Positions 360-16,162 of a stretch of DNA of 64,000 bases are shown piece by piece. Positions within the stretch are counted from its first letter, which is position 1. Each line of letters starts with the position of its first letter. The stretch covers positions 90,993 through 154,992 of the forward strand of contig CAVOSB010000037.1 in NCBI GenBank assembly GCA_963698765.1. The letters are read 5' to 3'. A model generated the notes under the pieces. It saw nothing but the letters and a program-made list of their open reading frames with translations. It was not told the origin of the DNA and did not search any database. This stretch comes from an uncultured Chloroflexia bacterium (lineage in GTDB: Bacteria > Chloroflexota > Anaerolineae > Anaerolineales > UBA4823). The position numbers and the translations under genes were made by a program.

Positions 360-2360
360 TTAGTTAGCTAACTGATCAATTCTACTGTTCCGTTTTGCGA
401 TCCGGAAATCGTGCTTTTGAGGGCGGACTGGTAAAGTGATAGTAAAAGTCGTACCCTCATTCGCTTTGCTCTCAGCTGAAATCTGCCCGCGGTGCATCTT
501 TATTATGCCATATACAATAGAAAGACCCAATCCGGTTCCTTTGCCTGGTGGCTTGGTGGTGAAGAATGGGGTAAACAATTTCTTCATATTCTCTTTGGGA
601 ATACCACAACCCGTGTCAGAGATTTTAATTTCTACCCAGGCAGGATCGACCACCCGCGTGATGATCTCAATTAACCCGCAGCCCTCTACTGCCTCAGCTG
701 CGTTATCAAGCAAATTGATGAAAACTTGCTTCAGCTGATCTGGATCTGCCTGAATGGTCGGGAGATCAGGATCATAATCTCGCTTGATCTCGATCCCTTC
801 AAAATCAGGTTTAAGTCGTAATGATTTAATCACCCGCTCGATCAAGTCATGCAGGTCGGTATCTTTGGAGAGCACATCCTGCTGTCGGGCAAAATTCAAC
901 AGGTCAGCCACAATGGCTTTGCATCGTGTGGCTTCCTGGATTATTAATTGCAGATCTTCGCGCTTTGGATCATCTTGGGGAGTTTCCTTAAGCAATATAT
1001 CTGAGAATAAAAGAATCGTTCCCAAAGGATTGTTCAGCTCGTGCGCTACTCCAGCTGCCAGCTGACCCATTGACGCCAGATTTTCTTTATGCATCAGCTC
1101 TTGTTGAGTCCGATGAAGAGTCTCAACCATTGAGTTAAATGAATGCTCCAATACGGCAAGCTCACCGCTTCCATCTTCACTCACCCGGACTGTCATATCA
1201 CCCTTGGCAAGCATTCGGTTTGCGTCCACCAGGGAAATGATTGGCCTGGTAATATAGCGAGCAATCGGTATGGCGATAATGGCAGCCAGGGCGATCGTAA
1301 GAAATGCAATCAGAACCACTTGTTGCCGGAAATTATCTAATAATGCCTGATAACCAGATTTCCTCGCGCCAACATAAATGATCCCTATGACCTCATCTTT
1401 GAAATTAAGAAGTGGTTTGTAGCTGGTGATAAAAGTATCATTGACGACAAAAGCTTCACCAATATAATCCTGCTTGTCACGCAGAACCACATTAAAGACC
1501 TCTTCTGAAAGCCGGGTGCCAATCGCACGCAATCCTTCTTTCGTCATAACATTGGTCGAGACACGTAAATCACCAAAGAAGATGGTTACGGTATCGACCC
1601 CCGCAACCTGCTTGATGCGATCGACCAGTGTGAAATCGTTGTTGAACAGGTACATAGCCAGTGCTGAACCGAGTATCTTTCCATCTCCACCTTTAATCGG
1701 CGCTACACCGACGAGAGCCAGCCCTGCTTCGCCTTCACGCGCATCGAAGGGCTTTTCAACAGCTAATGGTGTATCAACCAGCTCGATTTTGGCCTGGGTG
1801 TCTAGTCCAACGGTAGCTAGTTGTTCCACCGGGATCACATCGGTGGCTGAAATCGATTTACCCGTTCGCATTGCTTCCTTGACAATCGGCAAATCTCCCC
1901 AATACCCACTCTTAAGAATTGGAGACATCTCTCCATTTGATGATAGGGTCCTGCCTGCAACAATATTTCCTTCTTCGTCGAGCACAGCAATCAGGTGAGT
2001 ACCACCTAAAGCGAGCACAGTTATTTTATTCGTGATCTGTTGATCGATAATCTCCAGTGCTCGTGAATTTCCTTTAATTGCTAAGGGCAGATTATTTACC
2101 ACCCATTTATCCAGAACCAAGCGGTAACTGATGGCAGCTATCTCATCCAAGTTCAGGTTGTAGAAAGCGTTAGCCAGATCCATGTCACGGGAGACACGTT
2201 CGGATTCTGCGGCTGAAAGGTACTGGCTGATGACATGTGAAGTTATTCCAGAGCCAAATAAAACTGTGAATGCTGTCATCAAGGTGAAACTGATGATCAG
2301 GATTAACTGCAAGCGCCCACCCACAAGCAGCTTTAGAAGGGCTTCGAGGCGAGTGATCAA
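360..2360 (-). CDS. membrane sensor histidine kinase (extracellular Cache-like domain, HAMP, HisKA, HATPase)
   Basis: 666-aa ORF. It has an N-terminal TM helix, a large sensor region, a second TM helix and a HAMP-like segment (RPIISLVDANRMLAKGDMTVRV). The H-box is GVAHELNNPLG and the ATPase shows N/G boxes (LLDNAAEA, DTGCGIP, GTGLGLSIV). Confidence 0.85.
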   Translation of the reverse strand: MITRLEALLKLLVGGRLQLILIISFTLMTAFTVLFGSGITSHVISQYLSAAESERVSRDMDLANAFYNLNLDEIAAISYRLVLDKWVVNNLPLAIKGNSRALEIIDQQITNKITVLALGGTHLIAVLDEEGNIVAGRTLSSNGEMSPILKSGYWGDLPIVKEAMRTGKSISATDVIPVEQLATVGLDTQAKIELVDTPLAVEKPFDAREGEAGLALVGVAPIKGGDGKILGSALAMYLFNNDFTLVDRIKQVAGVDTVTIFFGDLRVSTNVMTKEGLRAIGTRLSEEVFNVVLRDKQDYIGEAFVVNDTFITSYKPLLNFKDEVIGIIYVGARKSGYQALLDNFRQQVVLIAFLTIALAAIIAIPIARYITRPIISLVDANRMLAKGDMTVRVSEDGSGELAVLEHSFNSMVETLHRTQQELMHKENLASMGQLAAGVAHELNNPLGTILLFSDILLKETPQDDPKREDLQLIIQEATRCKAIVADLLNFARQQDVLSKDTDLHDLIERVIKSLRLKPDFEGIEIKRDYDPDLPTIQADPDQLKQVFINLLDNAAEAVEGCGLIEIITRVVDPAWVEIKISDTGCGIPKENMKKLFTPFFTTKPPGKGTGLGLSIVYGIIKMHRGQISAESKANEGTTFTITLPVRPQKHDFRIAKRNSRIDQLAN

Positions 2361-2474
2361 AAAGTCACATTCCGCAGTCGCAAGAATAAAAAACCACAGA
2401 AAATCCCGAGACCACAGAGCGAAATTCCCTGCGTTATCCCGGTCCCTCTGTGGTTTTTATAGTTAGATCTGGTT

Positions 2475-2879
2475 TTAGACCTTTTCTTTACTGAGCAGAT
2501 AATCTACTTTCTTTACCAGGTCATCCGGATCAATGGGTTTATCGACGAATAACTCAACCGGCAGGTAATCGATATCCGGTTCAAAGCGAAGCGGAGTGGT
2601 GCTGTGAATGGCCGTCAGCATCAGGATCGGGATGCCTTTAAAATCTGCGAATTCTGAAGTTGGATCAGGGCTATGCAGTTTCAAGGCCATCTGGAAACCT
2701 TCCGTTTTAGTCTCCATCATCACATCCAGGATGATCAAGTCTGGACGGTCTTGCTTGATCATTTCCAAACCCTGTTTTCCGCTCTTAGCCTCAAATACCT
2801 GGTGCTTGGCATTTTCCAGGCACAATCTAGCTGCCAGCAGAATGTCTGGATCATCGTCGACGATCAATATTTTAGCCAT
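2475..2879 (-). CDS. single-domain response regulator
   Basis: 134-aa ORF: MAKILIVDDDPDIL...DLIILDVMM...DKP. Receiver fold only, with no output domain. Confidence 0.85.
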   Translation of the reverse strand: MAKILIVDDDPDILLAARLCLENAKHQVFEAKSGKQGLEMIKQDRPDLIILDVMMETKTEGFQMALKLHSPDPTSEFADFKGIPILMLTAIHSTTPLRFEPDIDYLPVELFVDKPIDPDDLVKKVDYLLSKEKV

Positions 2880-2896
2880 TTTTGTGTCCTTTCTTT

Positions 2897-3430
2897 TTAT
2901 ACATGTGATTCGGTAAGCTTAAACTGCGCAAATATATTATTTGGTGCAGGATCTTCTTCTGTCTGGGTCAATTCTAATTCAAATTGTATCGCTTTGCAGA
3001 CCTCCGTCACCGTACTGATTACTGGAGCGCTCAATCCTCGATGATATTCAATATTCTGGGGTTGGATGCCGAAGATCACAATTTCCTCCGGCAATGTGCC
3101 AAGAATTCTGCTCAGTGTAATTGCCTGGATAATCCCCAGCCCATGCGAGTTTTCCTGGTCACCTTCGGAGAGAATTTCGCTAATGTTGTCATTTACCAAA
3201 ATTCGGCGCCATTCTCCAGGCAGAAGCCCCATATTGGCAGCATCCACGATAATCACCTTTTCGAAATCAGGCCTCATCAGAATTGTCGACAGATCAGCTG
3301 TACCACAATCCATAATATCCACTCCTGTCGGAAGCGAATACGATATGCGAAGCCTTGCGGTGATGGCCTTTCCGACACCATCATCTCCACGTAGCTCGCT
3401 TCCAATGGAGAGGACCAGGGTTCTAGACAA
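2897..3430 (-). CDS. [NiFe]-hydrogenase maturation endopeptidase (HoxW/HycI/HyaD family)
   Basis: 177-aa ORF with the N-terminal LVLSIGSELRGDDGVG signature. It overlaps the stop of the hydrogenase large subunit by 8 nt. Confidence 0.8.
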   Translation of the reverse strand: MSRTLVLSIGSELRGDDGVGKAITARLRISYSLPTGVDIMDCGTADLSTILMRPDFEKVIIVDAANMGLLPGEWRRILVNDNISEILSEGDQENSHGLGIIQAITLSRILGTLPEEIVIFGIQPQNIEYHRGLSAPVISTVTEVCKAIQFELELTQTEEDPAPNNIFAQFKLTESHV

Positions 3431-4725
3431 ACTTCACCTTCAACATATGGGCCGAGCAGGAAATGCAGGGATCATACGCACGCACTAACATTTCCAGTTG
3501 TTGGGAGATGTGCTCTTGGGAAGTATTCAGGATAACAGGAACCAGACTCCGCATGTCAGCCTCAATATTCGCCAGGTTCTGTCCTGTAGGGATTATGCAG
3601 TTAGCTTCAGTGATGTATCCGCTTTTTATTGAATAATCGTGGAATAAGATGCCACGCGGCGCCTCACAGGCTCCTGCACCTTCTCCTGAGTATCGCTGGG
3701 GTGGTGTGGGCTCTTCCCAACGGATCCCGGCGTCCAATAATCGATCAATGATCTGGATCGCGTCTTCCACGCAGTGTACAATCTCCACCACCTGTGCAGC
3801 TGTGTTCAGGTAAGGATTGGTACATTTCGGTTTTATATCCAGGGCACTGGCAGCGGCTCTTGCTTTCGGATGCAGCTGGTTAAAATTTAATATTAAAACG
3901 TGCGAGAGCGCCAACCATATAAGATTGACGTTGGTTCCGGGCGTGTTTGGCGGAAGAGTGCTGCTGCTGATATTCGTTGGTGATATTCCGGTAATCCTCA
4001 ATTGGCCACAATCCACCATCGGTACTCTTGATCTGCCCGTCGATGAAACAATACTCGTCATCTTTCCATAACGCAATATATTCAGTGTCCCGTTCGAAAT
4101 CCGGGAATTTTAATCCCTGGAATAATTCGACGGTGGCGTCCAGGTCAATATCCATTGCCTGTAACCGGTCTTTGAGCTGCAGCAGCTGGTCTTTCTCAGG
4201 GAAATGGCTGAAACCACCGATCGTCATTCCGACAGGGTGTGTATGTCGCCCGCAGATAGCTGCACAAATATCACCTGCCAGCTGTTTCATCCGCAAGGCG
4301 CGCAGTACAACGTCGGGGGCGGTTTTGGCCAAAGGAATAACCGATCCAACACCCAAAAAGTCTGGAGCTACCAGCATATACGCATGCAGGACATGACTAT
4401 CCAGCATCTCCCCGTGGTAATTTAACTTCCTCAATAACTCAGTCTGCTGGCTGAGTTTTACATCCAGAGCCTTCTCAACGGCTCGATGAGAAGTCGTGGA
4501 ATGAGCTACTGCGCATATACCGCAGATTCGTGATGCCAACGTCGGCGCCTGCGTGTACGGCTGGCCGCGCAGCATCGCCTCAAAAAAGCGCGGTGATTCA
4601 ATGACTTCTAAATCGCATTGTTCCAGAATGCCATTTCTCGCGTTGACAACAATATTCCCATGTCCCTCGACGCGGGTTATATAGTGGATATTGATATCAA
4701 GGTCTTTCGTTCGTGATTTTGCCAT
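3423..4725 (-). pseudogene. group 3b [NiFe]-hydrogenase large (alpha) subunit, one frame break near 3887
   Basis: ORF 3880-4725 carries the N-terminal Ni-ligand motif RICGICAVAH. ORF 3423-4076 carries the C-terminal DPCISCSAH. The halves join as ...GALARFNI/NFNQLHPKA... if one A is removed from the run at about 3885-3890. Confidence 0.85.
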
Positions 4726-4774
4726 GTGTTCCTGTTCTCCTTCAGCTCCCGGTTTCGTTCTTCATCTCATAACT

Positions 4775-5543
4775 CTACGCTACATCAGAGGAGGATAATC
4801 CGGTGAACTGGTAAGATTGGAATAGCTTCATTTTTTCTGCAAACGCAGTCTCTGGCACGCCATGTTCATGCAGAGCTACCTTCAACCAGCCAATATTGGC
4901 ATCTGGCAGTAGACCGCGGCAGCCATCGCAACCAGAACCGTTTGCCGGGCAAATTGCGTTGCACCCAGCTCGAGTGATCGAACCCAGGCAAGCTTTTCCA
5001 TGTTCTACCACGCATGAATTCTCGCTGAGTTTGCATTCCACGCATACAGCGTAATCTGGCAGGCGGATTGGCCGGCCTCGCACCAGGGCTTTTGCAATGC
5101 GCACGAATTCATTCCTGTCGATCGGGCAGCCGGGAATGAATCCATCTATCTTAATTACCGCTTCGATCGGGCGTGGTGAATAAACATTAAACCGTTTTCC
5201 CATTTCACCGTACACATATTGCACGACGTGATCCTGAGACTGCCAGATGCGAATGGTATTTACCCCTCCAAGATGGGCACAGGCGCCGAGAGCAAAGACA
5301 AGCTGCGCTTGGCTGCGGATCGCTCTTAATCGTTCTTCATCCTGTTCTCGTGTGCATGATCCTTCGATAAATGCCACCTGGTAATCTTCGCTTTTTTCGC
5401 TCATTGCCTCGCGAAATTGGACAATTTCGACAGCATCCAAGAGGTCTGGATATGTCTGCAGCGCGTCGACAATCGTTAAACTGGCAACCTTCACAACTGG
5501 CAAAGTCAAAGAAGGCGATTTTTGGTTTACCATTCTCACTCAT
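4775..5543 (-). pseudogene. group 3b [NiFe]-hydrogenase small (delta) subunit, one frame break at 5478-5480
   Basis: The N-terminus MSENGKPKIAFFDFASCEGCQ lies in the frame of ORF 5337-5585. The rest (LTIVDALQ...FIEGSC...ALGACAHLGG...IPGCP) lies in ORF 4775-5539. Removing one base from the T3/A3 run restores CEGCQLTIVDAL. The ATG at 5541-5543 overlaps the upstream stop (ATGA). Confidence 0.8.
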
Positions 5544-6391
5544 AGGCCTTCCTCCAGGGTCTTTAATTGCGCATAGGTGAAACAAGGTCCATCCTTGCAG
5601 GTGTACTCGTGATTAATCTGGCAGTGCCCGCACTTGCCGATCCCGCATTTCATTCGCCTTTCCATATCGAGATATATATTTCCTTCGCGAATGCCCATTC
5701 CGATCAATTCTGTCACTACAAACCGGTACATCACCTGAGGACCGCAGGTGAATGACACCGTGTTGGGAGCATAGACCTGAATTTTGGGGAAGAGAGTGGT
5801 GATTACTCCGACATTTCCCTTCCAGTTCTCATCCCCACGATCCACGGTTACGAGCAATTCCACATCTTCACGCTCTTCCCACTCCTGGAGTTCTTCTTTG
5901 AAAAGCAGCTCCGATGGATTGCGCGCGCCGTAAAGTATGATCACCCGTCCATAATTGCTGCGATCATCCAGAACCTGGTTGATCAGGGATCTCAATGGGG
6001 GAAGGCCAATGCCCCCAGGGGTAAAAAGCATGTCTTTACCGCGAAATCTCTCGTAAGGGAAGCCGTGTCCGAATGGTCCGCGCACACCCAGAGTATCTCC
6101 GGGCTGCAGTTTGTGCATCACACCGGTAAAATCACCGGCTTTGCGAACGCACATTTGAAAAGAGCCGTTTGTCCGGCTGGGGGAAGACGAAATGCTGATC
6201 GGAGCTTCGCCCACACCCATTATCGATACTTGCAGGAACTGGCCAGGCCTGTGGTTCAAATTTATCCCTGCAGGGAGATCGATGGTAAAGAGCTTCGTTA
6301 ATTCGTTCATTTGATGGATATCCCGGATTCTTGCCTGGATGGGCAGGTAAACTGAGGTTTCCATCAATGCGTCTTTTAACCCTGCGATCAT
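5540..6391 (-). CDS. group 3b hydrogenase gamma subunit (FAD/NAD(P)-binding oxidoreductase with C-terminal 2Fe-2S motif)
   Basis: Ferredoxin-NADP-reductase-like sequence: RPGQFLQVS, GDTLGVRGPFG, PGGIGLPPL. The C-terminal cluster motif is CGIGKCGHCQ. I chose the start at MIAGLK (6391) because it gives an ATGA overlap with the beta subunit stop. Confidence 0.8.
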   Translation of the reverse strand: MIAGLKDALMETSVYLPIQARIRDIHQMNELTKLFTIDLPAGINLNHRPGQFLQVSIMGVGEAPISISSSPSRTNGSFQMCVRKAGDFTGVMHKLQPGDTLGVRGPFGHGFPYERFRGKDMLFTPGGIGLPPLRSLINQVLDDRSNYGRVIILYGARNPSELLFKEELQEWEEREDVELLVTVDRGDENWKGNVGVITTLFPKIQVYAPNTVSFTCGPQVMYRFVVTELIGMGIREGNIYLDMERRMKCGIGKCGHCQINHEYTCKDGPCFTYAQLKTLEEGL

Positions 6392-7452
6392 TGTGCAACC
6401 GCCTCCTGACGGGTGTGCTTGGCTGCTACCCGCCGGTGAAATAGTTTGTTCAATGTGTCTACCGGTGTAATATCGACCAGGCATGCAGACGAACACCGCC
6501 CACACCCGACACAACCTAACAGGCTGGGTGCGAAGGATTGGTATTTATATTTCCTGAAGAAGCGGTGGCGCTGTCTGTTTGCCTGCCCAGGCCTGAAATC
6601 ATGCCCACCAGCCACACTGGCGAACTGGTTGAGCTGGCATGAATCCCAGACCCGGCAGCGATTACCGGAATTCCCGGCGAAATCTGCCTCATCTACCATA
6701 TCAAAACAATAACAGGTCGGGCAAACCAGCGTACAGGATCCGCACCCCAAACAACGCTTTCCAAGGTCTTCCCAGATGGGTGATTTATAACTTGAGCCCA
6801 TCAATCCAGGCAGCTCTGTGATATCGGCGTGCAGATGGTATGTGAAACGTGGCCATTTATTGCGTAAAACCCGATTCAGCTGCTTTTCATCCTTATCCGC
6901 AGCCATATGCACTCGCTCGATTCCATTCAGTAATTTCTCTCCATATTCGGATCCCACATTCAACGCATAGGCGTCTCCGATGTCCACCATGTGGAGGTCG
7001 AGTTCAGCCGGGGCAGTATAAGTGCCCATATCTTTGCAAAATGAGTATTCGGTGCATGGTTCCAGGCACTCGATGCTTACGATGACGGTGTTTTTTCGGC
7101 GGCTGAAGTAATGCTGGTCCGCGTAATCGCGTTGAAATACGGTATCCAGGAAGTTGATGGCATGCAAATCGCAGGTATGCACGCCAAACAATACAGTTGG
7201 CGTATCATCAATCACTGCTTCAGTGCGATTTTCCGAATTATTGAAGGTCATTAATTCTTCGTATTGCGGTGAAAGTGCCTTCTTGGGTGGCAGGATAGTC
7301 GTGCGATATCCTAAATCCATCTCGGAAAATGAGGTCACTTCCTTGAACGCAAAATGTTGTTGAACCGGCGCAGGTCCTATGACGCGATATTCTTGATGTA
7401 GCTTTTCTATCCAGTTTGGTAATTCGGTTTTTGGTATGATTTTCAATGTCAT
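6388..7452 (-). CDS. group 3b hydrogenase beta subunit (4Fe-4S protein, anaerobic sulfite reductase subunit A-like)
   Basis: 354-aa ORF with CLGCGSCTLVCPTCYCF and CVGCGRCSSAC cluster motifs. The beta-gamma-delta-alpha order is typical of sulfhydrogenase-type group 3b enzymes. Confidence 0.8.
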   Translation of the reverse strand: MTLKIIPKTELPNWIEKLHQEYRVIGPAPVQQHFAFKEVTSFSEMDLGYRTTILPPKKALSPQYEELMTFNNSENRTEAVIDDTPTVLFGVHTCDLHAINFLDTVFQRDYADQHYFSRRKNTVIVSIECLEPCTEYSFCKDMGTYTAPAELDLHMVDIGDAYALNVGSEYGEKLLNGIERVHMAADKDEKQLNRVLRNKWPRFTYHLHADITELPGLMGSSYKSPIWEDLGKRCLGCGSCTLVCPTCYCFDMVDEADFAGNSGNRCRVWDSCQLNQFASVAGGHDFRPGQANRQRHRFFRKYKYQSFAPSLLGCVGCGRCSSACLVDITPVDTLNKLFHRRVAAKHTRQEAVAQ

Positions 7453-7571
7453 GACTGGAACGCTCCTTTCGCCTGAATTAGTTTCTGCTTTGAAAGACCA
7501 TTTTCCAGGCGAGGATTTCTTCAGATTTCTTCTTTGTTTTCTTATTTACCATATGAACAAACCGCAAAAAA

Positions 7572-7994
7572 CTATTCTGAAGCCGGCTCGGGTTCTGGCT
7601 CAGGCAGACCTTCCTGGACGATGATAACGTCATTCGGGTCCCCAAAATACACAACCAATGGATCTCTATTCAGTGCTGCCAGCTCCCAGACATCCTTCTG
7701 CATGGAGAGGCAGTCCTGGTTGCAGGAATGCACACATTGGGCGCAAAAAGTGCATTGATCGATATGGTATTCCATCACAAAACGTTTGGCTTTCTTGTCG
7801 AGCACATGCATCTTGATAGCAGCTGCCGGGCAATCGGTCCCGCACATCCCGCACCCAGTGCATTTCTCGGAATCCCAGTGCAGGTGCCCTCTCAGCCGTT
7901 CCGGAGTCTCGAAACGCTCGAAAGGATATTTTTGCGTAATATTTCTGCGAAAAAACGAATGGGTTACATCTGAAAGCATTGTCCCAAGTTTCAT
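7572..7994 (-). CDS. group 4 hydrogenase 2x[4Fe-4S] ferredoxin subunit (NuoI/MbhN/HycF-like)
   Basis: C-terminal 140 aa of the 447-aa ORF, starting at MKLGTML. Motifs are CTGCGMCGTDCP and CTFCAQCVHSCN, with an acidic PEPEPEP tail. The ATG at 7992-7994 overlaps the restored stop of the NuoH-like gene. Confidence 0.8.
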   Translation of the reverse strand: MKLGTMLSDVTHSFFRRNITQKYPFERFETPERLRGHLHWDSEKCTGCGMCGTDCPAAAIKMHVLDKKAKRFVMEYHIDQCTFCAQCVHSCNQDCLSMQKDVWELAALNRDPLVVYFGDPNDVIIVQEGLPEPEPEPASE

Positions 7995-8915
7995 AGTGTT
8001 AACCTCTGACCCAAGAACATGAATAACCACTGAACTAAAACCAACAGGGCGCCGTAACGCCACCAGATGCCGACCGTCTGATCGATGCGCAAGCGCGATA
8101 GGACTGCCTGGAGGACGGCTACGATTACCAGCAAAGCCAGAGTTTTTGCCAGGAACAGTAAGAGGATTCGACACTCCGCCCAAATAGAAGGCTGCCACCA
8201 GGGTCAGTCCCACTACCATCTCAACGCCTTTACCCAGGCGAAAAAGAGCCAACCCTCGACCGCTGTATTCGGTTAAAGCGCCAGCCACAATCTCGGTTTC
8301 CGCTTCGGGAGCATCGAATGGTGGCAGCTCCAGCTTACCCATCAGCCCGATGATCACTACGATAAAACCTATCGGCTGGGTGAAAATCAACCAATGGGAC
8401 TCGGTGTAGGCCGTAATCTTATCAATCTGCCAGCTTCCAGCTACGAGCGCAGGACCCAGCAGCGCCAACATAAAAGGCGCTTCATAAGAGAATAGTTGAG
8501 TGAATGTCCTTGTGGCTCCCAGCACCGAGAAGCGATCCATGGTGTTCGAGCCAGCCAGGCCCATGCAAAGGGTCAGTAAACTGAGCAGGTACAGCGTCAC
8601 AATCAAATCGCCAGTGAAGTTGAAGGCAGGTTTGATCCCCATGATTGGTACATACAGCGCAGCGGTCAGACCACCAGCCAGCGCAGCGATGGGCAGCCAG
8701 ACGAATAACCACTTATTCGATCCATCTGGGATTACTTCTTCTTTACCCATAAGTTTCACTATATCGGCGATCGGCTGAAACCAGCGTGGACCGATCCGGT
8801 TCTGAAGCTGCGCTAATAATTTCCGGTCAACCCACTCGTACAGGAGACCCGCCAGAAGCAAAAACAATCCACCCGGAAAGATAAGCAACCTAAGGAAATC
8901 TAGAAGAATCTCCAT
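7991..8915 (-). pseudogene. group 4 hydrogenase membrane subunit (NuoH/MbhM/HycD-like), frame break near 8170
   Basis: The N-terminal part is family-typical (LQNRIGP, EAETEIVAGALTEYSG). After FYLGG the track frame becomes nonsense. The alternative frame reads RILLLFLAKTLALLVIVAVLQAVLSRLRIDQTVGIWWRYGALLVLVQWLFMFLGQRLTL, ending in a TGA that overlaps the next ATG. Confidence 0.8.
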
Positions 8916-8918
8916 ATC

Positions 8919-10070
8919 TCACCGTCTGCTTTCAATCGTTTCGATTTTTCGATTGTCGCGAACTATGACCATCCGGTCATTGCAGGAGAAACAGGGGTCG
9001 ATGCCTGCCAGGATCATCGGGACATCGGCAAGCTGGTGTCCGACAACCAGCTTTACCACTGTAGTCATGTTACAAATCGTCGGCGTGCGTACTTTTACTC
9101 GTTCTGGTTTATCGGTGCCATTACTTTTAACAAAATAGAATAACTCACCGCGCGGCGCTTCCACACGCATGGCATATTCGGCTGGTTTGATGCGCCTGGG
9201 CATTCTTACGCTCAATTCGCCTTCCGGGAGCCGGTCCAAAATTTCGCGCACCAAGCGGTAGCTCTCGAAAAGCTCTTTCACTCGCACGATGAAACGGGCT
9301 TCCAGGTCGCCAGCCTGCTCGATGATAAGATTTGGCCGGAATTCATCGTATGCACCATAAGGACTTTCGATGCGCACATCACGCGCAACGCCTGACGCTC
9401 TGGCAGTAGGTCCAACCGCACCCATGACTTCTGCCTGCCTTTGAGTCATTTTCCCAACACCACGGGTTCGCTGCAAAAAGAAAGCATCGGTTGTGACAAT
9501 ATTCAGGTAGTGTTGCGTGCGTTCTTCAAGGATATCGAGGCCTTTTAATATGCCGGTTTTTTGTTCGCCATCCACATCAATCTTGACACCTCCCAGCAGG
9601 TTGGTGGAGTAATTCACCCGGTTGCCGGTCAGTTTTTCCAGGATATCCATGATGGTTTCACGGTCCCGCCAGCTGTACATGAATAAGGTGTCAAATCCCG
9701 CTTCATGGGCCGCCACACCGATCCAAAGCAGGTGGCTGTGAATGCGTTCCAGCTCGGATACCAATACACGAATGGCCTGAGCCCTGGGAGGTGCCTGGAT
9801 ATTCGCCAGATGTTCGACTGCCAAGCAATATGCTGTGGCATGGATATGAGAGCAAATTCCGCAAATTCTTTCAACCAGGTAAATATTCTGAATCCAATTA
9901 CGCTCTTCAGCGGCTTTTTCAATGCCTCGATGGGCGTAACCTAAGCGAACGGCTGCGTTCGTGACAATTTCACCATCCACGGTGAATTGAAAATTTCCGG
10001 GTTCCTTCAACGCCGGATGCTGTGGACCAACCGTAACTTCAAAAGGTTTACGTTCGATGATTTCCTCCAT
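8919..10070 (-). CDS. group 4 [NiFe]-hydrogenase large subunit (NuoD/MbhL/EchE-like) with intact Ni-Fe ligands
   Basis: Both CxxC pairs are present: RICGICSHIH near the N-terminus and DPCFSCNDR near the C-terminus, followed by a 17-aa tail. I placed the start at MEEIIERK (10070), which is preceded by GGTGGAG. Confidence 0.85.
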   Translation of the reverse strand: MEEIIERKPFEVTVGPQHPALKEPGNFQFTVDGEIVTNAAVRLGYAHRGIEKAAEERNWIQNIYLVERICGICSHIHATAYCLAVEHLANIQAPPRAQAIRVLVSELERIHSHLLWIGVAAHEAGFDTLFMYSWRDRETIMDILEKLTGNRVNYSTNLLGGVKIDVDGEQKTGILKGLDILEERTQHYLNIVTTDAFFLQRTRGVGKMTQRQAEVMGAVGPTARASGVARDVRIESPYGAYDEFRPNLIIEQAGDLEARFIVRVKELFESYRLVREILDRLPEGELSVRMPRRIKPAEYAMRVEAPRGELFYFVKSNGTDKPERVKVRTPTICNMTTVVKLVVGHQLADVPMILAGIDPCFSCNDRMVIVRDNRKIETIESRR

Positions 10071-10077
10071 GCTCCAC

Positions 10078-10545
10078 CTAATTATTCTGAAAAGCAATAC
10101 GAGGATCTACACCTTTTCTGAGAGGGTAGACTCCTTCCTTCCAGTCATCAGGGAGATACAGATGACCGGGATTTCGCAATCCAGCGATAGTGATGCCGTA
10201 CATCTCACACAGCTCACGCTCGAAGGATTCAGCACTGGGAATGATTTCCCATAGGCTTGGTACAGAGCCATTTAGTTTTGGTACCCGAAATCGAAGAATG
10301 ATCATCAGCTGTTCCACGCAGAAGTGGTACAGGATTTCCAGCTCTTCAGACTCGATACCAGGATCGAGACCCACGATCGCCGCAAGATACCCGAGCCTTT
10401 TCACACGCAATCCTACAACTGCTGGTACCAGGTCTTCGACCTGTTTCATATACACTTCAAGTCTAGTAGGATCGGGTGATTCGAATCTCTCTGCCCAATC
10501 ATCTAGCAGCAGGTGGACAGTCTCAAATGTATTTTCTGGATCCAT
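10078..10545 (-). CDS. group 4 hydrogenase NuoC/MbhK-like subunit
   Basis: 155-aa ORF with the NuoC-type C-terminal pattern PSLWEIIPSAESFERELCEMYGI...YPLRKG. Confidence 0.8.
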   Translation of the reverse strand: MDPENTFETVHLLLDDWAERFESPDPTRLEVYMKQVEDLVPAVVGLRVKRLGYLAAIVGLDPGIESEELEILYHFCVEQLMIILRFRVPKLNGSVPSLWEIIPSAESFERELCEMYGITIAGLRNPGHLYLPDDWKEGVYPLRKGVDPRIAFQNN

Positions 10546-10576
10546 ATGACTTCTCCAATCTCACTGCCGGTTTGGA

Positions 10577-11071
10577 TTACCCGGCTGAAGCTTCTAAGTG
10601 TTTTTTTGAGGGTGGAGGCGGCTGCAAGCTCGTCAGCAATTTCACGATTCCATCAACGATCGCTTCCGGCCGGGGAGGGCACCCAGGGATATAGGCATTT
10701 ACCGGGATTACCTGGTCGATTCCCCCCATTGTGTTATAGCAATCATGAAAAGCGCCGCCAGACAGTGCGCATGAGCCAACTGCTACTACAAATTTCGGAT
10801 CATGCATCTGTTCGTAAATTCTTATTAAGCGATCTTTGGCCTGTCGTGTTACCGGTCCGGTGCAGACCAGAACATCGGCATGCCGTGGGCTCCCTTTCAA
10901 CTTTATTCCAAAACGCTCAACATCGTAACGTGGTGTGAGAGTTGCCAAGATTTCGATGTCACACCCATTACACGAACCGGTATTAAAGTGGATAGCCCAG
11001 GGGGAATTAATTGCAGCCCAAAGTTTTAGACGGTGAACAACGTCTTCAACCAGATTTTCAGATTCACTCAT
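10577..11071 (-). CDS. group 4 hydrogenase small subunit (NuoB/MbhJ/HycG-like)
   Basis: Cluster ligands are GSCNGCDIE, GSCALSGG and IPGCPPRPEA. The start at MSESEN (11071) is preceded by AAGGAG. Confidence 0.85.
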   Translation of the reverse strand: MSESENLVEDVVHRLKLWAAINSPWAIHFNTGSCNGCDIEILATLTPRYDVERFGIKLKGSPRHADVLVCTGPVTRQAKDRLIRIYEQMHDPKFVVAVGSCALSGGAFHDCYNTMGGIDQVIPVNAYIPGCPPRPEAIVDGIVKLLTSLQPPPPSKKHLEASAG

Positions 11072-11090
11072 GTTTGATCTCCTTGTGCGT

Positions 11091-11399
11091 TTATCCGATG
11101 ATAAGAGCGACCAGGGCAAGCATCAATCCGACCAGATAAACGATCGTAATCGAAGACATATCGCTGCTGCCCAACACCAGGACACCCAGGTGGAGGATCG
11201 CAAAGAACAACGCCACAACGAAGAACGGGCGGTAGCCGGGAGATGCTAAATGAGTGGGTGGCGCTTCTCCGCTCGAATAGGTGCTGGTTTTGATTGCGGT
11301 CAGCTTCGCTGGTCCAGCGATGTAGCGCCCGAAACCAGTCAACAAACCGACCAGGACAAGATATATCAAGAAGGCAATTGGTGGGCTGAAAAGACTCAT
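11091..11399 (-). CDS. small 3-TM membrane subunit, NuoA-like
   Basis: 102 aa with three hydrophobic segments. The loop YSSGEAPP...YRPFFVVALFFAILHLG aligns by eye with the NuoA YECG...P...F..A..F pattern. The assignment rests on this motif only. Confidence 0.55.
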   Translation of the reverse strand: MSLFSPPIAFLIYLVLVGLLTGFGRYIAGPAKLTAIKTSTYSSGEAPPTHLASPGYRPFFVVALFFAILHLGVLVLGSSDMSSITIVYLVGLMLALVALIIG

Positions 11400-11501
11400 G
11401 TTTACTTTCCTATTAGATCCTGTTCAGATTATTTGATGTATTCCATTTTATTCAGGTAGCTATGTTTTCCAGGTATCTACGGTAGTAGTGCAGCCTGGAA
11501 G

Positions 11502-12977
11502 CTAGAACAAATTCACCAAAGCGGTACCGGCTGGAATTGTCAGCCAGTTCATCAAACCAGGCCACAAGCCTATGACGATTACCAAGATTGCCAGGACCAC
11601 CAGTGGGATTTTCATTGTGCCTGGCATCCTGTTCCCTTTAACAACCGTCTCCGAGGGCTCCAGGCGATAGAGGGCATTGATCATGGGTGCATAATATGCT
11701 AGTGAGAATACACTGTTTATAGCAGCGAAAAGCACGAGAAGCTCAATCCAGATATCATGGGTTTCGAAGCCTGAAACAAAAATTTGCCATTTGGACATGA
11801 AGCCGGAAAGAGGTGGGATGCCGCCCAATCCGAGTACCGCAAGGCTGAATGTCAGTGCGACCAGAGGATAGCGTTTCGAGGCACCGTTCAGGTCAGAAAT
11901 CAATAAAGGATGGTGATCGCCTGAAGCGATGTGCAGCGTGTACAACAGGGAACCGGCTGCCAGGAAGGCCAGTCCTTTCATCACTCCATGGTTGAAAAGA
12001 TGAAAAGCACCGCCCTGCGCGCCGTTGAATACACCTAAATACACAGCCACGCCCAAACCAACCAGCATATAGCCAACATGAGTCAGGCTCGAATAAGCCA
12101 GCAGGCGTTTGACCTGTTTTTGGCGCAGGGCCATTAAATTCCCCACCATCATGTTAAGAACACCAAAGATCATCAAGAATGGACCCCACCAGGCTGTGAC
12201 ATCGGCCAGGGCGCCCAACGAGCGCAGCATGGCGATCAATCCCGCCTCAATGACCACACCTGAGAGCATGGCGCTTATTCCACTGGGTGCCATCGAATGT
12301 GCATCAGGCAGCCATGTATGCAGTGGTACCAGGGCGGTTTTTACTCCAAATCCGATCAGGAATGCAGCTCCAGCTGCCAGCAGCCAGGGAGAGCTTTCGG
12401 CCTGCCGGATTTCGGAAAGGTCCAGGGTACCAGTCTGTGCCAGAACCAGGCTAATTCCTAAAAGCACAAGAACGGATCCTGCAGCGCTCTGGAGCAAATA
12501 TTTTACCCCTGCTTCAAGCGACAAAGGCAGCTCGTGATAGAAGGCAACCAACAGATAAGATGTGATTGCCATGGCCTCGAACCAGATCCATAAATTAAAC
12601 AGGTCATGGGCGCAACCCAGACCGATCATCACTCCAACCATGGCAACCAGCATGGCGTAAAATTTTTCCTGGTTCGCTTCTTTTGACATATAGGGACCAG
12701 AAAAAATCACCACCATCGTTCCTAATCCAAGAGCTACTGCGGACAACAGCAGGCTTAATCCATCAAAACGCAGGGAAATCCCACCGTATGTGTAGGAGAG
12801 AAAGTCTGTGTTCTGAAGCTCAGCTGCCGCTAAACCGAACGGAATCCACGTCACCAGGAGGACAGCAAGGCTTGTCCATTGTGCTATTCGCCGGCTTCCC
12901 AGATGACCACTCAGATAGATCAAAGGGGAAGCTACCAGAGGGATAATAATCAACCAGAGGAAGATTGGAAACTCCAT
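11502..12977 (-). CDS. antiporter-like subunit (NuoN/NuoM/MrpD/MbhH family)
   Basis: Polytopic protein of about 490 aa with the proton-pump family core (HTWLPDAHSMAPSGISAML, LAYSSLTHVGYM). The start at MEFPIF (12977) lies 1 nt after the upstream stop. Confidence 0.8.
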   Translation of the reverse strand: MEFPIFLWLIIIPLVASPLIYLSGHLGSRRIAQWTSLAVLLVTWIPFGLAAAELQNTDFLSYTYGGISLRFDGLSLLLSAVALGLGTMVVIFSGPYMSKEANQEKFYAMLVAMVGVMIGLGCAHDLFNLWIWFEAMAITSYLLVAFYHELPLSLEAGVKYLLQSAAGSVLVLLGISLVLAQTGTLDLSEIRQAESSPWLLAAGAAFLIGFGVKTALVPLHTWLPDAHSMAPSGISAMLSGVVIEAGLIAMLRSLGALADVTAWWGPFLMIFGVLNMMVGNLMALRQKQVKRLLAYSSLTHVGYMLVGLGVAVYLGVFNGAQGGAFHLFNHGVMKGLAFLAAGSLLYTLHIASGDHHPLLISDLNGASKRYPLVALTFSLAVLGLGGIPPLSGFMSKWQIFVSGFETHDIWIELLVLFAAINSVFSLAYYAPMINALYRLEPSETVVKGNRMPGTMKIPLVVLAILVIVIGLWPGLMNWLTIPAGTALVNLF

Positions 12978-12978
12978 G

Positions 12979-14728
12979 TTATATACCCCAGGCAAGTACG
13001 ATGAGAACTATGACCAGGCCGCCGACAATCCCCACAACGTTCCAATTCAATTGGCCGGTTTGTGTACGGCGCAGTCCTTCAGAGATCCTTTGGGTACCCC
13101 GGATGATCTGCTGGTTTATCCACTCAAATCCGAAACTCTTCTCGGCAATTGTCCCAAGTGGTTTCAGGATCCTAGCCAGGCCAGTGATCCTGTCTCTCAT
13201 CAGCCAGAAGGTTAATCCGGCTGCAACGATCGCCAGTGCAACCCAGGTGGCTGGAGCAGTTAAGATCTCGACTATGAAAGTGATTGTTGATGCGGCGTGA
13301 ATTCTCATGGAACGGCAGTGTATTGGCGAGTAATTCGCTGAACGGGCCCACTAGCAGCCAGGTGAGCAAAGTGCCAAGGGCAAGCAAGAACAGGGATATG
13401 CGCATCCTGGATGGTGCATCGTGGAAATGGGCTTTGTTCTGCGCCTCACCGTAAAAAACCATCCATACCATTCTCAGACTGTAAAAAGCCGTGATTCCGG
13501 CCACCAGGAGCATAACCAGGTAAGCCCAGAACGGTCCACCTACCATCCCACCTTCCAGTAAGAGCTCCTTGCTGAAGAAACCATTTGCGATCGGGATACC
13601 TGCCAACCCGGCTGCGCCGATAATAAAAACCAGCCTGGTAAAAGGCATAAGTTTTCCCAGGCCGCCCATTTCACGCATGTCGCGGGTGCCCACGGTATGA
13701 ATAACAGCACCAGCTCCTAAAAACAAAAGTGCCTTGAAGACCGAGTGGCTCATCAGGTGAAACTGGCTGGCAAATACGGCTCCACAGCCGATGGCATAGA
13801 CCATGTATCCGAGCTGGCTGATCGTCGAGTAAGCCAGAGTGCGCTTAAGGTCATTGGCGACAACTGCCATGATCCCTGCCATCAAAGCGGAAAGCATACC
13901 TACCAACATTACAGCCGATGTCCAGCCTGGGACGCTTTCAAAAGCAGGGAAAAATCTAGCAAGCAGATATACACCTGCATTCACCATTGTTGCGGCATGG
14001 ATCAAAGCGCTAATCGGTGTTGGAGCTTCCATTGCGTCAGGGAGCCAGGTTTGGAATGGTAGTTGTGCGGATTTCGCTGCCGCGGCGATCAGGAATCCGA
14101 ATGCGATGAACCCAAAGACGTTAACAGGGATCGTATGAGCATTTTCGATGAAATCCGGGATTTGATAAGTTCCGAGATAGGAATATATGATCAAAGCGCC
14201 TATCAACAGGCCAATCCCGCCGACTTGAGTGATAATCAGCGCTTTAATGCCTCCCGCGACAGCCTTGGGGTCATCATTGTGAAAAGAGATCAGCGCATAA
14301 GAACAAAAAGCTGTGATCTCCCAAAATATGAACATGAACAGAAGAGATCCAGAAAGAACGAGACCACTCATCGCCCCAATGAAGAGCAAAACCAGTGAAT
14401 AGTAGCGGCCTAATTGGGCTTCACCTTTCATGTAGTCATTGGAAAAGATGACAGCCAGACTGCCCACCACTGAAGCAATGATCGTCAGATATACACCCAG
14501 GCCATCTGGAATAAGGGTAAAGCTGCCAAACGGTGCTCCTAAAGGTATTTCTACTACCGATGAGGAGGATGCAAAAGGTAAAAGGGTGACAGCGAGCACG
14601 CCTCCCAGCACCGCGAAAATAGATGCAAGTGCGTGTTGGAGGCCCGGATTCTTATCTCCAAGCCTCCATACACACAACCCGCCCACCCAAGGCAAGATTA
14701 TGACCGATAGAATTAACCAGGATGCCAT
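12979..14728 (-). pseudogene. antiporter-like subunit (NuoL/MrpA family) with C-terminal extension, frame break near 13302
   Basis: ORF 13172-14767 carries the NuoL/MrpA core (WLPDAMEAPTPISALIHAATMV, LAYSTISQLGYM). Its tail is nonsense. ORF 12979-13308 supplies TM helices, and the join is ...LPFHE/IHAASTITFIVEIL.... The start at MASWLIL (14728) follows GAGGA. Confidence 0.8.
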
Positions 14729-14732
14729 GTCG

Positions 14733-15044
14733 TTATCCTCGTAATTTCGATAGTTCTGCGACGTCAAGCGTTCCGAGTTGCCGACGGACCTGGACGGCGA
14801 GGGCCATTCCTATTACTGCAACGATTGTGTCGGCGACGATCACCGTTATAACCAGGCTTTGAGCAAGATTGATGCGATTGCTGATCAAGCCAGCACCGAT
14901 GATTGCCAGCATGACCCCTTTGACTAAAATTTGAAGGGCGATCACCAGTTTGATCAGGTTGCGTTTGAACAAAAGAGTGTAGAAACCCACTCCCAGCAGG
15001 CAGATCACTCCGAAGATCATTATGTCGACAGGTGAAAAGTTCAT
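14733..15044 (-). CDS. NuoK/MrpC/MbhG-like small membrane subunit
   Basis: 103-aa, 3-TM ORF of MnhC/NuoK type (LIKLVIALQILVKGVML...ITVIVADTIVAVIGMALAV). Confidence 0.75.
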   Translation of the reverse strand: MNFSPVDIMIFGVICLLGVGFYTLLFKRNLIKLVIALQILVKGVMLAIIGAGLISNRINLAQSLVITVIVADTIVAVIGMALAVQVRRQLGTLDVAELSKLRG

Positions 15045-15594
15045 ACTGTCTCCTTTTCCAATTCGGGCTGTCCCATTTGATCCAACTCAATATCTCGTTT
15101 TGCAGTGATGGCATCCGCCACAGAATGCTTGAGGGAGATTTAACCTCCGCCAGCAGGCCAATCAGTCCGAGGACGCCGGCAAATATCAAACTCACTTGCA
15201 CCACCATATCCAAGCCACGTTCCTGCCAGAAGACAGTGATGAAGGGAGGCTCCGTTGAAGGGATTGTCGTCATTGATCCTGGAATTGTGAACCAGGTAAA
15301 CAACCCGACCATCAGCAATATTAACGCCCCACCCAGCCAGACCGGTACATATGATTTCAATACTCCTGGTTCTTCACCTGCTATGCTGATCGCGAAGGCA
15401 AACAGGACTGTGACCAGCCCGGCTCCAACACTCAATTCAACGACTGCTACCTGGCGAGCGCCAAGCAGATAGAACAACACTGCCACCATAGCGCTGACAC
15501 CCGCCAGCCAAAGGGCTGAAGCAATCAACCCTTTGGCTCTGACAGCCATGATCGCAAAAATGATCGATAAGAGCATGAGTAATGCGTATAGCAT
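15041..15594 (-). pseudogene. MrpB-like (DUF4040 + MnhB; NuoJ-related) membrane subunit, frame break at 15139-15141
   Basis: The N-terminal part (ARQVAVVELSVGAGLVTVLF, then FWQERGLDMVVQVSLIFAGVLGL) matches the MrpB/MbhD-E pattern. The track ORF then runs as nonsense through the whole NuoK-like gene. The alternative frame reads ISLKHSVADAITAKRDIELDQMGQPELEKETV, ending in a TGA that overlaps the ATG at 15042-15044. Confidence 0.65.
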
Positions 15595-15607: not shown

Positions 15608-16162
15608 TCACGCCAACGATGATTCCAGAGTATCCTGCCCGCGCATATAAGTCTCCAGGCTTATCCCATAGAAATCTGCCATAGCCTGAGAATTCGCAGG
15701 ATCCACCCTTCCCCAGCGAGCAAATGCCAGGTCGCCTTCCAAGTTGAAGCGACCGTTGTAGGTTTCTCCATCAGGCATTATTGCCCCATACAGACGCTTG
15801 GCTTTTCTTAATTGCTCATCTGTCAGGTTTCGAGCTTCCTTCAAATTAGCCTTATACAAATCAGCGCCTGAGATGTCTGTATGGCTCAGATTTGCCCTTT
15901 GGAAATTAACGCGCGTTAGTTTCGTATTGGCCAAATTAGCCATACTTAAATCTGCGTTTTCAAAATTGGCCTGGTGAAAATCGATGTTGGAGAGATCTGC
16001 TGAAAGCAAGTCGACTCCTTGCATGTGCACATGGCAGAGTGGGACTGCGCGTAAAGAGCCGTCTTGCAGCCAACCGCGGACGCGCAGCTCTTCTACAGCT
16101 TGCATGACACGCTTGTTGTCAGGGCTGCGCAATTTATAGATTAGCTCAACTAAAGTAACCAT
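15608..16162 (-). CDS. pentapeptide-repeat protein
   Basis: 184-aa ORF. Its centre is a run of A(D/N)LxX pentapeptides: ADLSNIDFHQANFENADLSMANLANTKLTRVNFQRANLSHTDISGADLYKANL. Confidence 0.85.
   Translation of the reverse strand: MVTLVELIYKLRSPDNKRVMQAVEELRVRGWLQDGSLRAVPLCHVHMQGVDLLSADLSNIDFHQANFENADLSMANLANTKLTRVNFQRANLSHTDISGADLYKANLKEARNLTDEQLRKAKRLYGAIMPDGETYNGRFNLEGDLAFARWGRVDPANSQAMADFYGISLETYMRGQDTLESSLA

Follow-up and report, generated by a model that had tools for sequence, protein, structure and literature searches.

A ten-gene operon in an uncultured Anaerolineales bacterium is likely to encode a membrane-bound group 4 [NiFe]-hydrogenase of ten subunits, an energy-converting enzyme related to archaeal Mbh. 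The enzyme would be driven by ferredoxin, evolve H2 and pump protons, with a division of labour among its subunits in the style of complex I. The operon lies in a stretch of 64,000 nucleotides (64 kb) of contig CAVOSB010000037.1 (assembly GCA_963698765.1, positions 90,993 to 154,992), hereafter called the window, and runs on the minus strand from position 15594 to position 7572. Its gene content, gene order, metal ligands, protein families, residue conservation and distribution were established by sequence comparison and are described below.

The locus was analysed using a table of open reading frames (ORFs) together with Pfam and NCBIfam scans. Ten co-directional genes were identified which, named after their complex I (Nuo) counterparts, are transcribed in the order J-K-L-N-A-B-C-D-H-I (Table 1), as reported in a preliminary description of this DNA. 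The intergenic gaps are 0-31 nucleotides (nt), with the exception of 102 nt before A. In the Pfam scan, J, K, L, N, B, C, D and H scored above the curated cut-offs. The Fer4 and NuoI-type models of Pfam and NCBIfam matched residues 308-421 of an ORF in which H is fused to I by a frameshift. J, L and H carry one frameshift each, which justified the earlier call for repaired subunits; the three proteins were repaired by frame joining and the repaired versions were used in the later comparisons.

The NuoD homologue, subunit D, retains both cysteine pairs of a [NiFe]-hydrogenase, in the motifs RICGICSHIH (at residue 68) and DPCFSCNDR (at residue 358). Among 66-67 orthologues, the four Ni-Fe cysteines and the glutamate equivalent to MbhL E21 were invariant, and the set formed by these cysteines with E23, R68, H77 and R366 was invariant or nearly so. 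Compared with the solved chains of the Protein Data Bank (PDB), D was closest to MbhL (284 bits), followed by HycE (254), Nqo4 (225) and MbsL (192). The best match, 6cfw_L, extended over the full length (E 1.9e-83). The four cysteines for the proximal [4Fe-4S] cluster in subunit B (CxxC...C...C; C34, C37, C101 and C131) were invariant in 72 orthologues, and two four-cysteine motifs are visible in I, the presumed docking site of the electron donor. The membrane anchor H matched NdhA (117 bits), E. coli NuoH (106), MbhM (104.5) and HycD (94.6), and inspection of its sequence revealed that the acidic loop between transmembrane (TM) helices 5 and 6, PFDxPEAExE...EYSG, is retained.

With both cysteine pairs, two antiporter-like subunits and counterparts of NuoB, NuoC, NuoI and NuoH, the locus has the features that define a group 4 [NiFe]-hydrogenase. 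Because the NuoD homologue keeps all four Ni-Fe cysteines, the complex is a hydrogenase and not a quinone reductase. An identity as complex I or as an Ehr/MBS-type complex was ruled out by the same four retained and invariant residues. The preliminary description had noted the cysteine pairs of the large subunit and the four cluster cysteines of the NuoB-like protein, and had concluded that the complex is neither complex I nor a ligand-less Ehr-type complex; each of these statements held when the orthologues were compared. The invariance of the catalytic and cluster residues, together with that of E53 in J (45 orthologues) and of Q38, K42 and D72 in K (49 orthologues), argues that the operon genes are under purifying selection as a hydrogenase. 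D also has a 17-residue C-terminal tail beyond the arginine of DPCFSCNDR. A tail in this position is typically cleaved off by a protease of the HycI type. Such a protease is encoded downstream (Table 1), and we propose that it would remove the tail.

Subunit A, a protein of 102 residues encoded between N and B, had been described as resembling NuoA because of a segment, YSSGEAPP...FFVVALFFAIL, that is indeed present. Its layout is TM1, a 29-residue loop (YSSGEAPP...PGYRP), TM2 and TM3, without a lateral (amphipathic) helix. By itself, subunit A scored 20.5 bits on the NuoA family of Pfam (Oxidored_q4, PF00507), against a cut-off of 23.3 bits, and a direct phmmer search of the PDB returned chance matches to a viral spike protein alone. 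A profile search of 1.84 billion representative proteins revealed a compact subunit-A family of 217 members and did not reach bona fide NuoA at library-wide E-values. The link to NuoA was made through Pfam and PDB searches with a widened profile. PF00507 was matched individually by 50 of 76 family representatives at E <= 0.01 (best 2.3e-7), and some close homologues of subunit A carry a precomputed PF00507 match. A profile built from 34 close homologues gave weak PDB matches (E 0.02-2), nearly all of them to ND3/NuoA, in register and near full-length. With the profile of the 76 representatives, 23 of 26 PDB matches were to ND3, NuoA or NdhC, covering positions 10-105 at E 1.1e-5 to 0.57; full-length alignments to solved ND3/NuoA chains lay at E 1.1e-5 to 3e-3. 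In contrast, the same profile matched MbhI (6cfw_I) at E 0.24 and over TM1 and the loop only.

The loop motif of more distant family members, YACGED, is near the YECGF of ND3. An AlphaFold2 (AF2) monomer model of subunit A was of low confidence (pLDDT 64, pTM 0.35), and only the positions of its helices (6-28, 58-76 and 82-101) were used; Foldseek with this model returned nothing from the PDB at E < 6. Many members of the family are automatically named NuoA by JGI and hypothetical by NCBI. Collectively, the family profile and the Pfam matches indicate that subunit A is a divergent NuoA-family protein, as had been proposed, and favour NuoA over MbhI for positions 11091-11399. The accompanying remark that NuoA is not normally listed for Mbh, Ech or Hyc/Hyf stands in part: a NuoA-type protein is found here, but Mbh does have a counterpart of it, as MbhI has been described as the N-terminal part of NuoA. 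In the same account MbhD plus MbhE, and MbhG, are relatives of NuoJ and NuoK (PMC8679088).

Among the other membrane subunits, J exceeded the cut-offs of both Oxidored_q3 (41.8 bits) and MbhD (37.1 bits). In the PDB it matched MbsD/MbhD over residues 5-70, corresponding to its first three helices, and NdhG/NuoJ over residues 5-157. K was closest to MbhG (47 bits), then to MbsG (42) and E. coli NuoK (29). The best match of L was E. coli NuoL (280 bits), followed by NdhF, Nqo12, MrpA (225) and MbhH (177), with MbsH' at 88 bits, and L passed the NCBIfam model TIGR01974 (NDH_I_L) with 423.8 bits against a cut-off of 407.5. A hydrophobic-moment profile of the C-terminus of L (residues 509-560) revealed TM15, an amphipathic lateral helix of ~50 residues and TM16. 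N matched MbhH (211 bits), MbsH (168) and, at ~133 bits, MrpA, NdhF and MrpD. On inspection, both L and N retain the glutamate of TM5 and the lysines of TM7 and TM12. They are the two antiporter-like subunits of the window operon, which has no NuoM.

In related complexes, the loop facing the active site (loop 1) and the lateral helix are distributed in different ways: both are on MbhI in Mbh and both on MbsH' in MBS, whereas in complex I the loop is on NuoA and the helix on NuoL (PMC7684303, PMC8165549, PMC8679088). Loop 1 of MBS comes from TM15-16 of MbsH' and not from a separate NuoA-like protein (PMC7684303). The placement predicted for the Anaerolineales enzyme follows the complex I pattern. 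As judged from the subunit sequences, the complex is thus a mosaic in which a Mbh-like catalytic core and a Mbh-like proximal pump are combined with three complex-I-style features, namely a separate three-helix NuoA, an undivided five-helix NuoJ and a NuoL-type subunit with its own lateral helix. The preliminary description had called the enzyme unusually complex-I-like. The division of labour bears this out, but D, N and K are closest to Pyrococcus Mbh and the gene order is not diagnostic. That order had been presented as the nuo order rotated to start at J, and it can be read so. It is, however, equally the order of Pyrococcus mbh (D/E, G, H, I, J, K, L, M, N), with which the operon is collinear except that mbhA-C and mbhF are missing and the NuoL-like gene is inserted after G. 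Because the order is equally that of mbh, it is by itself no argument for an affinity with complex I, and the complex-I likeness rests on the subunit types.

More than 8000 homologues of the large subunit are found in the databases at E < 1e-30, and the closest named among them are from Anaerolineae, Anaerolineales and Chloroflexota. With the subunit-A family as the query, relatives were found in 443 genomes (one genome per species), and the loci of the 80 best were surveyed by mapping ten reference proteins with tblastn. Nearly all of these 80 belong to Anaerolineae (Anaerolineales, Aggregatilineales, Ardenticatenaceae, Promineifilaceae, Thermoflexales and Caldilineaceae), and the cultured Anaerolinea thermolimosa IMO-1 is among them. 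The full J-K-L-N-A-B-C-D-H-I order was found in 54 loci, and 24 more that are cut by contig ends agree with it, so that the order noticed in the window is consistent with 78 of the 80. The other two, L018 (2078-8050) and L040 (6730-12688), both from Anaerolineae, have a nine-gene variant, J-K-N-A-B-C-D-H-I; they contain no NuoL-like gene and hence have no lateral helix on any subunit. No extra gene is ever inserted between the operon genes of the 80 loci. Within Anaerolineae, this arrangement represents the standard form of the enzyme.

Operons of a similar kind contain more distant members of the subunit-A family. L090 (Chloroflexota bacterium, 1471-14934) has three antiporter-like genes with A, J, K, B, C, D, H and I, which together cover all eleven core subunit types of complex I. 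The large subunit of L090 contains RVCGICSHIH and DLCIACADR and ends exactly at the arginine, without a protease tail. The L090 operon is interrupted by NfeD/Band-7 genes and a LPG_synthase_TM gene. L092 (4592-13103) lies on a contig that is apparently archaeal, judging from an adjacent TFIIS/RPB9-type gene; it has a split J (one MbhD-sized and one MbhE-sized gene), K, two antiporter-like genes, A, B, C, D with the Ni-Fe cysteines, H and I, followed by HycI. Huta_2230 of Halorhabdus utahensis is also a member of the subunit-A family. The operons of L073 (labelled Methanosarcinales archaeon) and L046 (candidate division NC10 bacterium) are 56-80% protein-identical to the Anaerolineae operons, which could reflect a binning or labelling error, or horizontal transfer. 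Automatic annotations of these genes include 'ech hydrogenase subunit E', NuoD and NuoA at JGI and 'nickel-dependent hydrogenase large subunit' or 'hypothetical' at NCBI. Because they are variously labelled Nuo, Ech or hypothetical, studies of Anaerolineae metagenomes may miscount complex I and hydrogenases.

From these features we infer the electron donor, the direction, the ion, the coupling and a link to a neighbouring group 3b hydrogenase. Reduced ferredoxin, the most likely low-potential donor, would dock on the NuoI-like subunit. No formate dehydrogenase, CO dehydrogenase or NADH-module gene was found in the operon, either in the window or in the related loci, and there is no dedicated substrate module, as in Mbh and Ech; both observations point to ferredoxin. 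Electrons would pass from the two [4Fe-4S] clusters of I through the single cluster of B to the Ni-Fe site of D, where protons would be reduced to H2. Three loops around the active site, contributed by the NuoA-like, large and NuoH-like subunits, would relay the reaction to the membrane part. Protons would then be translocated through the NuoH-like subunit, the NuoJ/K-like pair and the two antiporter-like subunits, which the lateral helix of the NuoL-like subunit would clamp together. By analogy with the Mbh/SHI pair of Pyrococcus, the linkage to the soluble 3b enzyme suggests that part of the H2 made at the membrane is re-oxidised and recycled to NAD(P)H.

The enzyme could also run in the opposite direction, with the proton-motive force driving the reduction of ferredoxin with H2, as by Ech/Eha in methanogens, and with the 3b enzyme likewise consuming H2. 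We consider this unlikely. Group 4 enzymes are reversible in principle, as Ech/Eha illustrate, nothing in the sequence fixes the direction, and the sensor kinase and response regulator linked to the hydrogenase genes suggest conditional use. However, the nearest solved relative is the H2-evolving Mbh, and the related loci L003, L004 and L005 include no linked genes for carbon fixation or for other processes that demand ferredoxin. Cultured Anaerolineae are, moreover, fermentative H2 producers. H2 evolution driven by ferredoxin is thus the direction that we favour.

With respect to the transported ion, the preliminary description had found no homologues of MrpE/F/G (MbhA-C), and had held that such genes in an operon-linked position would weaken its proposal. 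None was found in the operons of the 80 related loci or in their flanks within up to 9 kb per side. A hydrophobicity scan of the 64-kb window revealed no candidate small multi-TM ORFs, and the other multi-TM ORFs there belong to other Pfam families. In K, the positions of the NuoK glutamates E36/E72 hold Q and V, and those of the MbhG Na+-site residues D37/H41 hold V41 and M45 (M/L). Both the missing MrpE/F/G module and the replaced Na+-site residues of MbhG point to simple proton pumping as the probable mode of the enzyme, and not to Na+/H+ exchange.

The same results bear on whether the operon encodes an ordinary Mbh-type enzyme (HydDB 4d), with a Na+/H+ module (MbhA-C/MrpEFG) encoded elsewhere and with the 102-residue protein as the orthologue of MbhI. 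The affinities of D, N and K to MbhL, MbhH and MbhG, the collinearity with mbhD-N and the relationship of MbhI itself to the N-terminal part of NuoA (PMC8679088) are all in keeping with such an enzyme. We nevertheless regard it as improbable: no MrpEFG-like gene accompanies the operon in the regions searched, the subunit-A family aligns over its full length with NuoA/ND3 at E ~1e-5 but with MbhI over TM1 and the loop only, the lateral helix is missing from subunit A and found on an extra NuoL-type subunit, and the Na+-site residues are replaced. Of the properties that mark a Mbh-type enzyme, a catalytic subunit closest to MbhL was found, whereas linkage to MrpE/F/G, and an MbhI with a lateral helix beside a single antiporter-like subunit, were not.

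Several points weigh against the proposed ten-subunit, proton-pumping hydrogenase with complex-I-style subunits. Subunit A alone stays below the PF00507 cut-off, and its assignment to NuoA rests on evidence from the family. K lacks the acidic residues used by NuoK and by MbhG, and the proton path through J and K may work differently or not at all. The search for MrpE/F/G covered the 64-kb window and the locus flanks, and such genes may lie elsewhere in the genome. The donor, direction and ion are deduced from the sequence. Finally, three of the ten genes are frameshifted in the window assembly; if these lesions were real, the enzyme would be inactive in this strain.

The frameshifts were examined by comparison with closely related contigs. 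J has a one-base deletion at ~15136, L a one-base insertion at ~13303 and H an extra T at 8161; in the neighbouring 3b hydrogenase, delta and alpha have single-base frameshifts at 5480 and 3888. Five frameshifts inside 13 kb would fit a decaying pseudogene cluster. However, the extra T is absent from L002, a short-read contig that is 99.9% identical and encodes an intact NuoH-like protein of 307 residues, and every gene is intact in the short-read contig L005, whose large subunit is 93% identical. L004, a sister contig from long reads (94-96% DNA identity), is intact at all five sites and has different single-base indels of its own, which is the pattern of long-read consensus errors. There are no stop codons or larger lesions, and further indels between the window and L004 occur in neighbouring two-component genes at 16.2-18.1 kb. 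Most of the window indels are in short homopolymers. Decay of the cluster is thus very improbable, and we rejected it on the comparisons with L002 and L004. As the indels are absent from L002 and L005 and L004 is intact with other indels, the frameshifts are best explained as single-base assembly errors. The window appears to derive from an unpolished long-read assembly.

Downstream of the operon, the genes of a group 3b hydrogenase begin on the same strand, 119 nt beyond the end of the group 4 operon (Table 1). Such genes adjoin the operon in 21 of the 80 loci, downstream on the same strand in 17 and upstream on the opposite strand in 4. In L003 and L092, both without 3b genes, HycI follows the operon directly. 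The response regulator and kinase are conserved downstream of the hydrogenase genes in L003, L004 and L005. That the group 4 enzyme and 3b beta/gamma form one supercomplex fed by NAD(P)H instead of ferredoxin, as the short same-strand gap with no terminator detectable by scanning and the SHI beta/gamma-like modules proposed for some group 4b enzymes in a 2026 survey (PMC13582414) might suggest, is the least credible alternative, given that the 3b cluster has its own large and small subunits and so forms a complete soluble hydrogenase, that it is absent or on the opposite strand in most loci keeping the ten-gene operon, and that NAD(P)H-driven H2 evolution with pumping appears energetically implausible. 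Scans for promoters and terminators gave counts no higher than in shuffled sequence and hence were uninformative about transcription units. Upstream of J, a gene for a pentapeptide-repeat protein is also present in 13 of the 80 loci and in L003-L005; we know of no role for such a protein in hydrogenase operons. Elsewhere in the window, a UbiA-family prenyltransferase gene (48041-48946) is followed by large ORFs at 48979-50211 and 50283-52313, which are apparently unrelated to the hydrogenase locus.

Table 1. Genes of the group 4 hydrogenase operon and its surroundings (window coordinates; aa, amino acids).
Feature	Position	Strand	Remarks
Subunit J, NuoJ/MbhD-like	15041..15594	-	~184 aa repaired, 5 predicted TM helices; Oxidored_q3, MbhD
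Subunit K, NuoK/MrpC/MbhG-like	14733..15044	-	103 aa, 3 TM helices; Oxidored_q2 50.9 bits
Subunit L, NuoL/MrpA-type antiporter-like	12979..14728	-	~584 aa repaired; Proton_antipo_M, NCBIfam TIGR01974
Subunit N, MbhH/MrpD/NuoN-type antiporter-like	11502..12977	-	491 aa; Proton_antipo_M 224.8 bits
Subunit A, predicted divergent NuoA/ND3-family	11091..11399	-	102 aa; family-level profile evidence
Subunit B, NuoB-like hydrogenase small subunit	10577..11071	-	164 aa; Oxidored_q6 117 bits; NCBIfam NuoB subfamily models above cut-off
Subunit C, NuoC-like	10078..10545	-	155 aa; Complex1_30kDa 71 bits
Subunit D, group 4 [NiFe] large subunit	8919..10070	-	383 aa; NiFeSe_Hases and Complex1_49kDa
Subunit H, NuoH/MbhM-like membrane anchor	7991..8915	-	~308 aa repaired; NADHdh 220 bits
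Subunit I, NuoI/MbhN-like 2x[4Fe-4S] ferredoxin-type	7572..7994	-	140 aa; Fer4 dicluster families, NuoI-type NCBIfam models
Pentapeptide-repeat protein	15608..16162	-	184 aa; Pfam Pentapeptide 75 bits; 13 nt upstream of J
Group 3b NAD(P)-linked, sulfhydrogenase-type [NiFe]-hydrogenase, four genes	3423..7452	-	soluble; intact in L005
3b beta	6388-7452	-	Fer4_22
3b gamma	5540-6391	-	FAD_binding_6, NAD_binding_1 and DHODB_Fe-S_bind
3b delta	4775-5543	-	Oxidored_q6; frameshift
3b alpha	3423-4725	-	NiFeSe_Hases; frameshift
HycI-type maturation endopeptidase	2897..3430	-	Pfam HycI 60.8 bits
Response regulator	2475-2879	-	candidate regulator
Cache/HAMP histidine kinase	360-2360	-	candidate regulator

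How the hydrogenase arm (H with B, C, D and I) is attached to the membrane part would distinguish a derived Mbh from a hydrogenase with the topology of complex I. In Mbh and MBS the arm docks on the antiporter-like end, whereas in complex I it docks on the NuoA/J/K end. We tentatively suggest that the arm of the Anaerolineales enzyme may dock via the NuoA-like subunit on the NuoJ/K end, as in complex I, although we hold this somewhat less probable than the alternative. If so, complex I topology would be represented by an extant [NiFe]-hydrogenase, and the one-, two- and three-antiporter forms (L018/L040, the window and L090, respectively) would record successive steps by which the membrane arm of complex I was built up, prior to the loss of the Ni-Fe site. 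Accounts of complex I evolution, built on the structures of Mbh, MBS, Mrp and formate hydrogenlyase (FHL), must explain how the hydrogenase module shifted from the antiporter-like end to the NuoA/J/K end, and must date the arrival of NuoA, of an undivided NuoJ and of a NuoL with its own lateral helix. A 2011 survey placed NuoA and NuoJ in no hydrogenase, and Hyc/Hyf were described as lacking both (Moparthi and Hagerhall 2011, PMC3144371). In the operon reported here, as read from its sequence, NuoA, an unsplit NuoJ and a lateral-helix NuoL occur together in a genuine Ni-Fe hydrogenase. The operon has no Na+ module and is abundant across Anaerolineae, including cultured strains; these features make it a good test case for the origin of complex I from hydrogenases.

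In full-text literature searches, no publication emerged on a Ni-Fe hydrogenase that combines NuoA, undivided NuoJ, NuoK and a lateral-helix NuoL and lacks MrpE/F/G, nor was a HydDB subgroup found for the Anaerolineae clade. A 2021 review of complex-I-like complexes covers Mbh, MBS, Mrp and complex I only (PMC8165549). HydDB group 4g comprises uncharacterised multi-subunit enzymes from both bacteria and archaea that are presumed to be coupled to ferredoxin. The group is reportedly polyphyletic, and Ech2-like or Mrp-linked clusters are described for its published members. An automatic classification would most likely assign the clade to this group.

Among the known systems, Ech (4e) and Hyc/Hyf (4a, PDB 7Z0S) share with the Anaerolineales enzyme the six-subunit core of B, C, D, I, H and an antiporter-like subunit, and HycE is the second-best solved match to D. 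In contrast, Ech has two membrane subunits alone, and an identity as a six-subunit Ech was rejected, despite the JGI label 'echE'. Hyc/Hyf have a fused NuoC-D large subunit, a formate dehydrogenase and HycB-type partners; with no Fdh and no fused NuoCD, FHL was also ruled out. MBS/Mbx (PDB 6U8Y) has two antiporter-like subunits, one of them with a lateral helix, and MbsD/G-type small subunits, as the enzyme described here does, but it lacks the Ni-Fe cysteines and keeps MbsA-C, and its MbsH' is a weak match to L.

The Mbh of Pyrococcus furiosus (PDB 6CFW, HydDB 4d) supplies the best solved matches for D, N and K, and for the N-terminus of J MbhD is second-best to MbsD. The two enzymes also share the homologous gene order, the lack of a dedicated substrate module, the apparent dependence on a HycI-type protease and a soluble 3b hydrogenase partner, SHI in the case of Mbh. 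Unlike Mbh, the operon here has no genes for MbhA, B and C or for MbhF, and its NuoJ is undivided, whereas Mbh splits it into MbhD and MbhE. The place of MbhI, which bears the lateral helix of Mbh, is taken by the predicted three-helix NuoA-type protein, and the helix is found on the additional NuoL-type antiporter-like subunit; the Na+-site residues D37/H41 of MbhG are replaced. Compared with the 11-subunit core of complex I, the enzyme differs in keeping the Ni-Fe cysteines, in having no NuoM and in a K without the two glutamates of NuoK. It nevertheless has ten of the eleven subunit types as separate genes, including NuoA, NuoJ and NuoK, and H is as close to NdhA/NuoH as to MbhM. L passes the NDH_I_L model with a TM15-lateral helix-TM16 arrangement, J has five helices and subunit A has the TM1-loop-TM2-TM3 layout of NuoA. 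Together, these comparisons suggest that an Mbh-related hydrogenase core is carried on a membrane arm whose subunit types are in large part those of complex I.

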